NCBI GenBank assembly: GCA_964503265.1 | Contig: CAZCYO010000001.1 | Location: 226,064 to 290,063, forward strand | Length of the DNA stretch: 64,000 nt | Source: an uncultured Gammaproteobacteria bacterium | GTDB taxonomy: Bacteria; Patescibacteriota; Microgenomatia; Levybacterales; UBA12049 | Reading direction: 5' to 3' | Part shown: piece by piece, positions 22,869 to 57,352 of the stretch | Layout: each line of letters starts with the position of its first letter | Position numbering within the stretch: the stretch's first letter is position 1 | Notes under the pieces: generated by a model | The model's database searches: none | Told to the model about the DNA's origin: nothing | What the model saw: the letters and a program-made list of their open reading frames with translations, nothing else | Position numbers and translations under genes: made by a program

Positions 22869-22894
22869 GGATCCTGAATCAAGTTCAGGATGAC
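22869..22894. repeat. Intergenic palindromic repeat (GGATCCTGAA-tcaa-GTTCAGGATGAC), member of the GTCAT/ATGAC-ended family.
   Basis: Read directly. Copies with the same architecture: 27201..27226, 46048..46071, 46114..46135, 38313..38335, 57252..57274, 57288..57344. GTCATTGCGAG-type copies: 35830..35893, 48807..48850, 53213..53251. Confidence 0.8.
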
Positions 22895-22905
22895 ATAAAG
22901 AAGAA

Positions 22906-24330
22906 TTATTTATTTGCTTTGGCTTTTTCTACTGCTTCTTCGATTGTTCCGACCATGTAGAAGGCTGATTCGGGAAGTGAATCGTGTCTTCCTTCTAGAA
23001 TTTCTTTAAATCCTCGTACTGTATCTGCTGTTTTTACATATTTTCCAGGTGCGCCAGTGAATACTTCAGCGACGAAGAATGGCTGTGATAAGAATCGCTG
23101 AATCTTTCGAGCTCGAGCTACTGTTTGTTTATCTTCGTCAGATAACTCGTCCATACCTAAGATAGCGATGATGTCCTGGAGATCTTTATATCTCTGAAGC
23201 ACTTTTTGTACTCCTCGAGCGACATCATAGTGATCCTGACCGATGATGTTTGGATCAACCATGCGAGAAGTAGAAGTAAGTGGATCTACAGCTGGATAGA
23301 GACCTTGTTCTGCGATAGATCGTTCAAGAGTGATGGTTCCGTCCATGTGCGCGAATACTGTCGCAGGTGCTGGATCAGTGTAATCATCAGCTGGAACATA
23401 GACAGCTTGAAGGGAAGTGATCGATCCTTTTTTCGTACTCGTGATACGTTCCTGGAGTGCACCGATTTCTGTCGCGAGGGTAGGCTGATATCCTACTGCT
23501 GAAGGCATACGACCAAGGAGTGCTGATACTTCTGATCCTGCTTGAGCGAAACGGAACACGTTATCGATAAAAAGAAGTACATCTTCATGTTTCTCATCAC
23601 GGAAATATTCAGCCATCGTAAGTGCTGTTAACGCAACTCGAAGACGGTTCGCTGGTGGTTCGTTCATTTGTCCATATACCATCACAGTTTTATCAAGAAC
23701 TCCAGAACCTTTCATTTCAAGCCACAAATCTGTTCCTTCACGAGTACGTTCTCCAACGCCAGCAAATACTGAATGTCCTGAGTGTTCAATAGCGATGTTT
23801 CGGATAAGTTCCTGAATGATAACTGTCTTTCCAACTCCTGCTCCTCCGAAAATACCGATTTTTCCACCTCTGGTGAAAGGAGCGATAAGATCGATTACTT
23901 TAATACCTGTTTCAAGAATAGATGGAGTGGTTTCTTGTTCATTAAAAGTCGGTGGAAGTTTATGAATACCATCAAGCGTTACACCTTTCATATCTAGTGG
24001 CATTCCGTCGATGGTTTTACCAAGAACGTTAAAAATACGTCCAAGTGTTTTATCTCCGACTGGAACTTGGATGGCGTTTCCAGTTCGACGAACTTTTGTA
24101 CCACGAGCAAGTCCATCAGTGGACGCAAAAGCGAGAGCTTTTACATCATGATCACCAGTCTCGAATTGTACTTCAAGGGTGATTTCTTTTCCATCTGGTC
24201 CATCGAGCACGAGAGCTTCTTGGATAGCTGGAACATCACCTTCAAAATGAACGTCCACGACTGGTCCTTGGATTCTGATGATGATTCCTTCGTTTAATTG
24301 TGTTGTTTCTGTATTTTTATTATTTGCCAT
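22906..24330 (-). CDS. atpD: F0F1 ATP synthase subunit beta.
   Basis: Walker [16 protein letters not shown]-like C-terminus. Start trimmed to MANNKN to avoid overlap with atpG. Confidence 0.95.
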
Positions 24331-24340
24331 ATGTTTATAT

Positions 24341-25267
24341 TTAATTGTTAACCATTGCTGCGCCTGATCCGATATCAAGTATTTCACTTGTAATCTTCGC
24401 CTGTCGAGTTTTATTATACTCGAGTCGGTACGCTGCTATTATATCATTTGCGTTGTCAGTTGCGTTCTGCATTGCAATCATTCGTGCACCCTGCTCTGAA
24501 ACGAAACTTTCAAGCAAAAACTGAAAGAGTCTCATCTCAACAGTATGTTTTAATAGTGACGGCAGTAATTCTGTTACCGTCGGCTCGTAAACATACTCTA
24601 AATCTGAAGATGAGATTGCCGCGCTCTCGTTGTTCGCTCGCAATGACACATCTGTTTTACCCTTTGTATTTTGTTCTTCACTCTTTGCCATCTCCTTTGA
24701 AAAAGGAAGAAGTGTTTCCACTCGTGGCTTCTGAGAGAAGATACTGTCAAAGTGAGTATAAATCACTTTTACACTACTTACTTTTCCAGAGACGAAGTTA
24801 TCATCGATAATTCGAGCGATAGGGTATACCATATCGAACGTCGGTGTCGATGTTCCGAAAAGAAAGTTAGCGATAACATTCTCTCCACTTCGAGCTCCAA
24901 AACTCTCAAGCTTTCGGCCAAGTATTACATAATCATCGTTCTTATGTTCTTTCTGATAAGAATAGAACTCTTTTTGAAGATTCGTAATGAGTCCTCCACA
25001 AAGTCCTTTATCAGGAGATAGAACAATCACTAATGTTTTTTCTGTGTCTTTGTTCTCAGTAATGTATGGATGAGAAAAATTCTCTCCAGCTTTACTGATC
25101 GCTGACACAGTAATCTCTGTTAATTTAGTAACGTACGGACGAGCATTTAGTGCTGCTTCTTGAGCGCGCTTCATTTTAGAAGCTGCGATCATTTGCAGAG
25201 CGCGAGTTGTTTTTGAAACATTCTGCGCTGCTTGTATTCGTCGTTTTAAACTAAGTAAACTAGCCAT
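24341..25267 (-). CDS. atpG: F0F1 ATP synthase subunit gamma.
   Basis: [32 protein letters not shown] conserved N-terminus. 308 aa. Confidence 0.9.
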
Positions 25268-25274
25268 ATCTTAT

Positions 25275-54943: not shown

Positions 54944-56274
54944 ATCAAGAAAAGACCCAATACACTTGTGACGATAATACACATGACACTCAGTCCAAAT
55001 TTTACTGTAAATTCTTTGGTTCCTAGAAAGTAACTATATGCTGTTTTACCGATTAGATTTACTGCATTAGCTAGAATAAAGGCGATAGCGGCTAGTTGGT
55101 ATGAAACGGTAGTTCCTGAAAGTTGGGCGGTGTTAATCATGACTGCATCTAGCCCTGCGAGCGCTCCAATTCCAGTGGTTACTAAAAAACCACTGCTGCC
55201 AAAATACTTCAATGCTACTTTCGAAAGAATGCTTATCACAAGAAATATTCCTGCAAACTTTATTGCAGGTGACAAGGCAAAAATCTCAGTCTCTTTTTCA
55301 TGTGACTTGTCTGGCTTGAGTTTCTTTTTACTTGATTGCATGGTGAAAAATATTGTGACGGCCAGACTGCTCACGATCATTAATCCAAGAATCGGGAGGA
55401 GTCTGATTACAAAAGTGATATTAAGCGGGGAAAGAAGAATCGCAATCTGAAAAAAGCTGACCAAATTCGCGATCAGTGCAGCTGAAAGGAGATGATTTAC
55501 ATCTTTTGACGTCTTACTTTGCAGTGCAAGAGACTGAGTGGTCGCAGTACTTGAGATAAAGCCTCCAGCGATACTTGCTAGTATCCATCCTTTTTGGCGT
55601 CCAAGTGTTCGCTCGAGAATGTATCCGATAAGGTCGACTCCGGTAATGAGTGCGACTATCAGCCACAATTTAAATGGGTTAACTATCTCAAGCTGAAAAA
55701 GACCGTTTACTGGCACCTGTGCGTTATTAAAGAAATTGGTTAGTCCGGGGATATCCTTTAGTGCATACGATGTATTTGGTAGAAAGGGAAGGATAACCAG
55801 GGCGATGATGGCATAACTAATAAAAGCGTTAAGTTCTGCGCGCTTTATACCTCCGATCACCTGTTTAATAGCTCTTTTTTGAGAGAGAGTGAGTGCCAGA
55901 ACTGCAGTCATAGCTATTGTTACTTGTACTGGAATAATCGTGGTTGCGATCAGTATGCCGATGATAAAACAGAAAAGCATGGCTAATTCAGTAGTAATTC
56001 CTGTATCTTTTGTTTGGTTTGTATCAAGGACATAAAACACGATAAGAAGAACGAGAAACGCTGCGCTAATGAGGATAGAGAATCCAATAAAATTGGTATA
56101 GAGTATCCCTGCAACTGCTCCTAACGTCGCGATAAGCGCGAAGCTGCGCAATCCCAGAACCGAAACAATCTTACCATTAATGATGTTTTTTTCATTAATT
56201 TCTCGTTCTATCCCGATCGCTGCACCAAGAATAAATGAAATAAGTAGAGTAAACGAAATAGTTATGCTATCCAT
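54940..56274 (-). CDS. MgtC/SapB-family membrane protein with extended C-terminal multi-TM domain (DUF4010-like).
   Basis: N-terminal GAAIGIEREINEK matches the MgtC G-x-E-R-E motif. About 12 TM helices overall. Confidence 0.6.
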   Translation of the reverse strand: MDSITISFTLLISFILGAAIGIEREINEKNIINGKIVSVLGLRSFALIATLGAVAGILYTNFIGFSILISAAFLVLLIVFYVLDTNQTKDTGITTELAMLFCFIIGILIATTIIPVQVTIAMTAVLALTLSQKRAIKQVIGGIKRAELNAFISYAIIALVILPFLPNTSYALKDIPGLTNFFNNAQVPVNGLFQLEIVNPFKLWLIVALITGVDLIGYILERTLGRQKGWILASIAGGFISSTATTQSLALQSKTSKDVNHLLSAALIANLVSFFQIAILLSPLNITFVIRLLPILGLMIVSSLAVTIFFTMQSSKKKLKPDKSHEKETEIFALSPAIKFAGIFLVISILSKVALKYFGSSGFLVTTGIGALAGLDAVMINTAQLSGTTVSYQLAAIAFILANAVNLIGKTAYSYFLGTKEFTVKFGLSVMCIIVTSVLGLFLI

Positions 56275-56348
56275 AGGCAGGTATTGTACTGCATCATGCG
56301 TAAAATGAAAAGCATTTTCATATGTATTTCATATGTTAAAATCAACAT

Positions 56349-56621
56349 ATGGAAGAAATCGAACAGGTAAAAAAAGAATTAGCCGAGATAAAAGCGCGAA
56401 ATAAGCGGGTTGAAATGCAAAAAGCGTGGGAAACATCAAATACTCGTCGATTATCTATTATTTGCTTAACATATATCGTGATGGTGGTACTGCTTTCTAT
56501 TATCGGTACACCAGTTCCCTTCATGAATGCAGTTGTTCCAACGCTAGGATTTTTCTTATCTACCGTTTCAATTAGTGTTATTAAAACATGGTGGATTAAA
56601 AAGAACAACTTAGGAGTCTAA
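56349..56621 (+). CDS. Hypothetical small membrane protein with an N-terminal coiled-coil.
   Basis: 90 aa. Charged helix followed by two hydrophobic helices. Confidence 0.4.
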   Translation: MEEIEQVKKELAEIKARNKRVEMQKAWETSNTRRLSIICLTYIVMVVLLSIIGTPVPFMNAVVPTLGFFLSTVSISVIKTWWIKKNNLGV

Positions 56622-57244
56622 ACAGTATTCTCTCTATGATGGCGGAGTTCTTTTGAGGTTACTTTTCCTGAAGAATCTAATTGATATAGATAAATTTCAC
56701 CAGTCGCGATTTCAAGCGAGGCTACTTCCTCATCGGGCATATTGTCTAAATACTTGACCAATGCTCTGAGTGCATTTCCACTTGAGGCAAGGATAACGTT
56801 TTTTCCGTCCTTTAGGTGGGGAAGAATTTCAGATTCAAAATATGGAATTTCACGTTCATATACTTGTTTTAGTGATTCACCGTTTGGAACAGGGTAATCC
56901 CATGCACGGCGTAATTTCAAAAAGTCTTCCTCACCAAGTGTTTCTTTCACTTCCCATTTATTTTTAGCAGTAAAATCACCATAATTTCGTTCATTAAGAG
57001 CTTTATTTTCAGTAGTAGGAATAGATGAGAGGTTGAGTGATTCTAGAATAATATGGAGTGTGTGTTTTGCACGAGTGAGAACGGAGGAATATGCTAGGTC
57101 AAATGAAATGTCTTTCAGTTCTGAACCTGCAACTTTTGCTTCTTCAATTCCTTTTTCGGTTAGTTCTGGATCATCCCAGCCAGCCCAAATACCTTTTTTA
57201 TTATATTCAGATTCACCATGTCGTACGAGTGCTAGGTAGGCCAT
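56618..57244 (-). CDS. gpmA: 2,3-bisphosphoglycerate-dependent phosphoglycerate mutase (histidine phosphatase superfamily).
   Basis: LALVRHGESEYN RHG motif. Adjacent to eno. Confidence 0.75.
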   Translation of the reverse strand: MAYLALVRHGESEYNKKGIWAGWDDPELTEKGIEEAKVAGSELKDISFDLAYSSVLTRAKHTLHIILESLNLSSIPTTENKALNERNYGDFTAKNKWEVKETLGEEDFLKLRRAWDYPVPNGESLKQVYEREIPYFESEILPHLKDGKNVILASSGNALRALVKYLDNMPDEEVASLEIATGEIYLYQLDSSGKVTSKELRHHRENTV

Positions 57245-57352
57245 AAAAATTGTCATTCCCGCGAAGGCGGGAATCTATTGAAAGTCTGGATCCCCGATCC
57301 CAACTTCGCCAAGGCTTCGCTGGGCGAGGCAGGTCGGGGATGACACAATGAT

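Follow-up and report, generated by a model that had tools for sequence, protein, structure and literature searches.

Why should a streamlined, AT-rich genome of the candidate phyla radiation (CPR) carry a series of GC-rich hairpins, most of them between genes? The question is raised by a 64-kb stretch of contig CAZCYO010000001.1 (the window; GC content 37.9%), which the names of its AtpC and AtpG homologues place in a Microgenomates-like CPR bacterium. An initial annotation had grouped these hairpins as a family of symmetric palindromic repeats. The analysis described here makes it likely that they are units of the Ssn-related motif (SRM), a family described in 2025, which an Ssn-type nuclease would cut and which would have spread through the genome. 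The hairpins of this CPR genome would thus be explained by a nuclease system characterised only in that year. The system is a known, recently described one and not a new kind; new are the subfamilies missed by the published search pattern, the architecture of convergent pairs and the comparative evidence for insertion.

Architecture and enrichment of the hairpins

Read on the GTCAT strand, the clear copies consist of tGTC, a palindrome of the type AT-YCC-nnn, loop, nnn-GGR-AT, and a tail C-(C/T)-A-(G/T), with a stem of 7-10 bp. Without exception, the GC-rich ATYCC hairpins of the window are flanked by GTC on one side only and by C(C/T)A on the opposite side, so the units are oriented and not symmetric. 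Six short core units were found, at 22870-22894(-), 27202-27226(-), 38312-38335(-), 46048-46072(+), 46111-46134(-) and 57252-57275(+), together with one core unit with a long loop, 57289-57344(-). Folded as single-stranded DNA (ssDNA), the core units form clean hairpins (-5.9 to -12.8 kcal/mol, z scores -2.1 to -4.1) in which the GTC head and the C tail are unpaired. In a second class (class II) the palindrome starts with ATTGCGAG or ATCGCGAG and ends with GCAATC or GCGATC; its members lie at 24614-24647(-), 35868-35893(-) and 53204-53235(+). Degenerate or composite copies occur at 27163-27192, 35830-35852, 38228-38297, 48807-48850 and 53241-53281. Units stand singly or as tail-to-tail pairs with their GTCAT heads outward.

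All sequences quoted in the initial annotation are present in the window, and the palindromic repeats it described are real. Its GTCAT...ATGAC symmetry, however, does not hold for single units, in which the head, GTCAT, is joined to a different tail, ...ATC(C/T)A; where ATGAC appears, it is the head of a unit read from the opposite strand. Symmetric ends are found only in the convergent pairs 46048/46111 and 57252/57289, in the degenerate pairs 27163/27202 and 38228/38312, and in the composites 35830-35893 and 48807-48850. The shared 11-mer GTCATTGCGAG was correctly placed at 35830 and 48807, but the third copy starts at 53204 instead of 53213, and a fourth lies at 24647(-) within atpG. The labels of the neighbouring genes (the atp genes, gatB/gatA/gatC, murT/gatD, yraN, pyk, lexA, gpmA and eno) were confirmed. 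Eight of the ten listed elements are mostly intergenic, as had been claimed, while intergenic DNA makes up 7.6% of the window (p=5e-8), and a ninth, 27202-27226, overlaps only a spurious N-terminal extension of the atpH open reading frame (ORF). The family is not purely intergenic, with one class II copy inside the atpG coding sequence, and operon boundaries were not borne out as the preferred location: most sites lie between co-directional genes inside apparent operons.

The initial annotation had also named enrichment beyond chance as a test of the family, and such enrichment was found in the 64-kb window, to which all these counts refer. GTC directly precedes a perfect hairpin that begins with AT (stem >=7, loop 3-8) at 6 sites; 100 shuffles that preserved dinucleotides gave 0.13 on average and never more than 2. 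The relaxed pattern GTCATxyz...x'y'z'ATC occurs 11 times, against 0.67 (sd 0.84, maximum 4) in 200 shuffles. The 7-mer GTCATYS by itself is not enriched in the window (32 vs 29.9); the enrichment emerges when head, hairpin and tail are taken together.

Relation to the Ssn-related motif

A full-text search with GTCATTCCCGC led to the study of Chenal et al. (Nat Commun 2025; PMC11893778), and the literature search found no further paper on these sequences. In its main text that study defines the Neisseria Transformation Sequence (NTS), CGTCATTCCCGCGMAVGCGGGAATCYRG, and the broader SRM, with the search pattern HGTCWYN(0-2)YYVSBRHN(0-5)WNVSBRGN(0-2)RNCYNB, which was derived by hand from 29 genomes. 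SsnA, according to that study, is a GIY-YIG protein of 94 aa with a single domain; it binds the hairpin exclusively in ssDNA and on the GTCAT strand alone, nicks it a few nucleotides upstream of the head and has no action on RNA. The C right after the palindrome is given as most critical for binding, and the three bases right before it for cleavage. The cognate ssn gene (single-domain GIY-YIG, cd10448, ~94 aa) is typically flanked by the motif (PMC11893778).

The core units of the window keep both of these functional determinants. In all seven (six short, one long-loop), tGTC directly precedes the palindrome and C directly follows it; this C has been lost in the degenerate copy 38228-38297. 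Unit 57252-57275 contains the exact NTS core and agrees with the NTS consensus at 26/28 positions. Unit 38312-38335 agrees at 25/28, and its two stem differences form one compensated pair. The units thus belong to the SRM family by sequence and by structure: like NTS/SRM they are multi-copy, oriented hairpins with a (Y)GTC head, an ATTCC/ATCC palindrome and a C tail followed by YRG-like bases, and in other genomes they flank small GIY-YIG genes in an SRM-gene-SRM layout. Differences from the described system concern the host, a CPR/Microgenomates bacterium, the terms 'Patescibacteria', 'Saccharibacteria' and 'candidate phyla' being absent from the main text of PMC11893778, and the coexistence in one window of several stem subfamilies, most of which (e.g. 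ATCCTCGA) fall outside the published pattern, with no ssn gene within the window. The tail-to-tail pairs, long-loop variants and in-frame coding copy of the window were likewise not found in the main text of that paper. Rfam at gathering threshold returned three tRNAs only from the window. Matches at 40862-40903 and 62781-62807 were treated as chance.

Copies in other genomes and the Ssn-type nuclease gene

Among the matches listed, more than 118 stretches, belonging to many phyla, contain an exact copy of the hairpin GTCATCCTCGA(4-6 nt)TCGAGGATC; chance would account for roughly a few. Hosts among these matches include Fibrobacter, Alpha- and Gammaproteobacteria, Actinobacteria, Bacteroidota, Planctomycetota, TM6, Saccharibacteria, Peribacteria, Roizmanbacteria and Daviesbacteria, among others. 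The flanks of these copies resemble those of the window, with Y at -1 in 107 of 130 and C/T, A, T/G after the tail. In other genomes the GTCATCCTCGA subfamily coexists with the other subfamilies of the window, including units identical to 57252-57275 (in Daviesbacteria, L075, and in L211) and to 38312-38335 (in a Peribacteria locus, L113).

A covariance model (R1) was built from 110 copies, all from other genomes and none from the window. On the GTCAT strand it recovered the six short window units with scores of 32-43 bits (E 5e-10 to 8e-7), while the opposite strand scored 9-16 bits. At three inner stem pairs that were unconstrained by the selection filter, the R1 alignment holds 25, 21 and 51 double compensatory changes.

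Hairpins of this family are associated with ssn-like genes in other genomes. GIY-YIG ORFs of 92-96 aa (PF01541, E ~1e-16) lie within ~150 bp of them in the loci L021, L022, L025 and L046; in metagenome-assembled genomes of Chromulinivoraceae, Saccharibacteria, Bacteroidetes and Cloacimonadaceae these ORFs measure 92-95 aa. The ssn-like assignment is by PF01541 matches and homology. In the Chromulinivoraceae locus the order is unit(+), gene, unit(-). In Gottesmanbacteria (L204/L205) the gene is bracketed by convergent units, the (+) unit 8 bp before the start and the (-) unit overlapping the stop, and in Curtissbacteria (L207-L210) it has a unit pair upstream and one unit downstream. The same GIY-YIG protein family stands beside NTS-core hairpins on two contigs of a viral collection (L215, L254), and ssn-like homologues are annotated in Curtissbacteria, Levybacteria and Gottesmanbacteria. 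Searches of PDB and NCBIfam with the ssn-like protein yielded a distant GIY-YIG structure (UPF0213) and, below threshold, a match to an intron endonuclease, but nothing else. These results place the Ssn/SRM system in lineages of Microgenomates, Saccharibacteria and Peribacteria, which are unnamed in the main text of PMC11893778. Common subfamilies escape the published pattern, and one of them flanks ssn-like genes in several phyla.

The closest ssn-like GIY-YIG proteins were found mostly on very short contigs, often <2 kb, a pattern that would be compatible with multi-copy genes or with genes between repeats at which assemblies break. None of 2.9 million viral contigs matched the ATCCTCGA hairpin subtype exactly; the matches listed for the NTS-core subtype, GTCATTCCCGC...GCGGGAATC, comprise more than 120 viral contigs, some with an adjacent ssn-like gene. 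The position of yraN (UPF0102) next to the 48807 unit appears coincidental; the ORF adjoining yraN encodes ribosomal protein L19.

Behaviour as insertions

Orthologous sites differ in occupancy among related genomes. In the atp operon the window carries units at atpD/atpC and at atpF/atpH. The atpD-atpC spacer holds none in the relatives L004 and L005 (AtpC 81-83% identity). In L211, whose AtpG is 85-86% identical (BLASTP and alignment), convergent pairs occupy atpA/atpG (~80 bp) and atpG/atpD (~115 bp), two junctions that are tight in the window and in L005. Such differences in occupied sites between sister lineages imply recent activity. Downstream of lexA no unit was found in the stretches examined for relatives with LexA >=68% identical, while a similar unit follows lexA in L168 (LexA 54% identical). 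In L189 two near-identical composites stand 14 kb apart, and homology fades ~15-20 nt outside them. No target-site duplication was seen around the units.

One copy is translated. The class II unit 24614-24647(-), GTCATTGCGAG...GCGGCAATC, lies in frame in a variable loop of AtpG (atpG 24341-25267) and codes for 13 residues; AtpG has 308 aa in the window and 280-292 aa in most Microgenomates relatives. L211 has the same insert (VSLGGAKSDAAIS, still GTCATTGGGAGG...GCGGCAATC) and L005 a decayed version of it; P0244 and the AtpG proteins of most Microgenomates lack it. Discrete gain of units as insertions is backed by the differences at the atp junctions, the duplicated composite of L189 and this translated copy.

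Pairing is directional as well. Across the fetched loci, adjacent units are convergent (tail to tail, heads outward) in 37 cases and divergent (head to head) in 9 (p=4e-5), mostly 11-36 bp apart; the pairs of the window are arranged in this way too. Tail-to-tail pairs have the geometry of the SRM-ssn-SRM cassettes of other genomes, minus the gene. We infer that the units spread, now or formerly, as small non-autonomous insertions, and that an Ssn-type nuclease, provided the genome encodes one, would cut them whenever DNA is single-stranded, during replication or DNA uptake. It may tentatively be speculated that SRM units, especially the tail-to-tail pairs with outward heads, are non-autonomous elements derived from SRM-ssn-SRM cassettes and moved via ssDNA by the Ssn GIY-YIG nuclease. 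If true, Ssn/SRM would form a new class of mobile elements that are guided by hairpins, span phyla, are active in the ultra-small genomes of CPR bacteria and can enter essential genes such as atpG without disturbing the reading frame. The comparative evidence makes it directly testable whether Ssn/SRM is itself mobile or serves only to modulate transformation.

Weighing of alternative explanations

Several results weigh against identification of the window hairpins as units of the Ssn/SRM system. The published SRM pattern recovers just one true copy: it matches 57251-57278 plus one non-hairpin site inside a gene, 62781-62807. The other copies fail at one or two stem positions, stems such as ATCCTCGA falling just outside the pattern. 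The class II units (ATTGCGAG type) fold weakly (z ~0) and score poorly with R1. No ssn-like gene was found in the window by tblastn (E<=10, nothing), and a Pfam scan of 28 window ORFs, mostly small, gave no GIY-YIG domain and no transposase. In 821 kb around lexA (80 related loci) no clear ssn-like gene was found, with a single weak GIY-YIG match (1.8e-4). For CPR organisms, roles of the units in cleavage, transposition or transformation would be predictions. The hairpins might instead be inert fossils: selfish insertions of the SRM type, dispersed in an ancestor, which survive in this lineage with neither a cognate nuclease nor any current function. This is a serious possibility, although the evidence as a whole leans away from it. 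It is consistent with the missing ssn gene in the window and in the 821 kb of relatives, with the many decayed copies (27163, 35830-35893, 38228, 53241 and the atpG copy in L005) and with the patchy distribution among relatives. However, the seven core copies are perfect or near perfect and retain both functional determinants, and since unselected GC-rich stems should erode in a genome of 38% GC, these intact copies weigh against fossils. So do the ssn-like genes common in Microgenomates and the recent activity implied by the differing sites of sister lineages.

A role at the RNA level, as terminators, attenuators, mRNA 3'-end stabilisers or processing sites between genes, is unlikely. REP hairpins stabilise upstream mRNA in E. 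coli, and in the window stable hairpins directly follow the stop codons of atpD, eno and lexA, with loosely T-rich tails at 57274-57255 and 35889-35873. The initial annotation had proposed that the repeats could mark transcript 3' ends, but its case is weak: ~9 of 11 units lack a T-run, their orientation relative to transcription is mixed, several lie within the atp operon, whose genes must be co-expressed, and terminator-like sites are not enriched overall (13 vs 15.1; 17 vs 12.5). An RNA role also leaves the conserved, asymmetric GTC head and C tail outside the stem unexplained, and identical sequences recur across phyla next to a gene for a DNA nuclease, SsnA itself having no action on RNA according to the main text of PMC11893778. 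The likeness to REP elements and bacterial interspersed mosaic elements (BIMEs) stood in part. The hairpins share with REPs their small size and dispersal, a location mostly between genes, the frequent pairing in inverted orientation and a history of insertion. A further likeness is that a small nuclease, encoded by the gene which the hairpins flank, probably recognises them in ssDNA. That they are classical REP/BIME elements moved by a REP-associated tyrosine transposase (RAYT; IS200/IS605-like Y1), the TnpA(REP)-like history suggested by the initial annotation, is nevertheless very improbable. Their conserved flanks are (T)GTC and the tail C(C/T)A, where REPs have the tetranucleotide GTAG/CTAC; their stems vary within one genome, unlike those of REP families; and no Y1 (HUH) transposase was found among the 28 window ORFs scanned. 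The gene that they bracket in other genomes encodes a single-domain nuclease of 92-96 aa belonging to the GIY-YIG and not the HUH/Y1 superfamily. Chance palindromes in AT-rich intergenic DNA, finally, can practically be dismissed: the head 7-mer is unenriched by itself, but head and hairpin together far exceed the shuffles (6 vs 0.13 and 11 vs 0.67), a model made from other genomes gives E values down to 5e-10, and identical units occur in unrelated phyla.

Comparison with other repeat families

The symmetric 20-mer dRS3 of the Neisseria intergenic mosaic element (NIME) arrays shares its ATTCCC-N8-GGGAAT core with 57255-57274, and its units too are dispersed and often clustered. The window units differ in having conserved asymmetric flanks and, in most cases, stems other than ATTCCC, and no evidence of a prophage or recombinase association was found for them. 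The in-frame copy in a tolerant, translated loop of the essential atpG recalls the Rickettsia palindromic elements (RPEs). RPEs measure ~100-150 bp and are known only from Rickettsia, whereas the window units measure 24-56 bp and have another consensus. Like miniature inverted-repeat transposable elements (MITEs), e.g. the Correia elements of Neisseria, the convergent pairs form a short unit with inverted termini that occupies a given orthologous site in some genomes and not in others, and L189 has two nearly identical composites at a distance of 14 kb. Unlike in MITEs, the termini are themselves hairpins and no target-site duplication was seen; mobilisation by a nuclease instead of a DDE transposase would be unusual.

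Individual copies in the window

The core unit 22870-22894(-) stands in the atpD-atpC spacer, 11 nt past the atpD stop on the sense strand. It has the head GTC, stem arms ATCCTGAA and TTCAGGAT around the loop cttga, and the tail C followed by cag (-6.4 kcal/mol, z -3.0; R1 40.1 bits, E 3.9e-9). In the atpF-atpH spacer, unit 27202-27226(-) has the arms ATCCTCGA and TCGAGGAT, the loop cgtga and the tail C cag (-7.4 kcal/mol; R1 42.6 bits, E 7.6e-10). Its partner 27163-27192(+), GTCtTCCGCCagctGGCGGATCtatt, is degenerate, with A->T in the head, and is weakly evidenced (R1 12 bits, E 0.44).

The gatB-gatA spacer holds a decayed cluster, 35830-35893, listed without a strand of its own: a GTCATTGCGAGGA head (+), an opposed GTCATTCC head at 35852 (-) and the class II unit 35868-35893(-), GTCATCGCGAG...GGCGATC. 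Its stems are weak (R1 10.7 bits, E ~1). Between gatC and gatD, the core unit 38312-38335(-) consists of GTC, ATTCCTGC-gaag-GCAGGAAT and C cag (-7.7 kcal/mol, z -4.1; R1 34.8 bits, E 1.3e-7). Beside it, the long-loop variant 38228-38297(+) has the head GTC, the arms ATTCCGGA and TCTGGAAT around 51 nt with an inner hairpin, and T in place of the lost tail C (-9.0 kcal/mol, z -2.7). The ~50-nt loop of this copy is homologous to a long SRM loop at a different locus in a sister lineage (L211:1404-1469; 50/73 identical overall), so the long-loop form is a propagated subfamily and not a one-off.

The first member of the convergent pair near tRNA-Gly, 46048-46072(+), has the same arms as 27202-27226, ATCCTCGA and TCGAGGAT, around ctaga, with the tail C tat (R1 43.3 bits, E 4.8e-10; opposite strand 16.4 bits). 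The second, 46111-46134(-), reads GTC, ATTCCCG-tgaaat-CGGGAAT, C tat, and lies 37 nt upstream of tRNA-Gly(CCC) (R1 32 bits, E 8.3e-7). Between yraN and pyk the symmetric composite 48807-48850, GTCATTGCGAGA...TCTCTCAATGAC, also listed without a strand, probably belongs to the family (-7.5 kcal/mol, z -3.1; R1 9.7 bits, E 2). The class II unit 53204-53235(+), GTCATTGCGAGAAGCC...GACGAAGCAATC tct, begins 11 nt past the lexA stop (R1 11 bits). In tandem with it stands the degenerate, AT-rich hairpin 53241-53281(+), with GTT before ATTCTGGAAA...TTTCCAGAAT and C after it, for which the evidence is weak (R1 14 bits, E 0.11).

At eno, the core unit 57252-57275(+), GTC, ATTCCCGC-gaag-GCGGGAAT, C tat (-8.9 kcal/mol, z -4.0; R1 38.5 bits, E 1.1e-8), and the long-loop core unit 57289-57344(-) are convergent partners 13 nt apart. 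The latter, directly past the eno stop, has GTC, ATCCCCGA(CC), an inner hairpin, (GGGA)TCGGGGAT and C cag (-12.8 kcal/mol, z -2.1). Its inner loop holds CTTCGCCAAGGCTTCG at 57304-57319. The same 16-mer occurs at 3220-3235 of L212, a Microgenomates contig, where it codes for part of an in-frame AtpG insert, TSLRQGFEGQ; CTTCGCCAAGGCTTCG may represent a second small repeat family nesting inside SRM loops. The L212 insert had been suspected of being a second in-frame SRM, but at the DNA level it is not an SRM.

Effects on neighbouring genes

The units mislead gene annotation: in atpH, and possibly in gpmA, they give rise to false start codons and N-terminal extensions. The atpH ORF (141 aa, 26805-27230(-)) reads through unit 27202-27226 and thereby gains 26 spurious residues (MCHPRRDRGSS...); its true start is the ATG at 27152. 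Program-made ORFs and the Logan contig's gene call alike begin within SRM units or run through them. In gpmA (56618-57256(-)) the first ATG, at 57256, is the CAT of a GTCAT head, and the ATG at 57244 is the more likely start.

Within 46130-46158(+), the ATGACA at the end of unit 46111-46134 resembles a -35 hexamer; 17 nt from it stands TATACT with a TG extension, whose end is 12 nt before the tRNA-Gly gene (46171). This repeat may have been co-opted as a promoter element. In the larger gaps of the window (21030-22395, 29024-30042, 53403-54064 and 61068-61782) several ORFs of 88-201 aa gave no Pfam match at E <= 0.01; 'islet 3' of the initial annotation, past lexA, falls in one such gap. The MurT/GatD pair of peptidoglycan amidation, 38369-40410(-), adjoins gatC, and a second histidine-phosphatase paralogue, besides gpmA (56618-57256), is encoded between gatA and gatC at 37313-37936.

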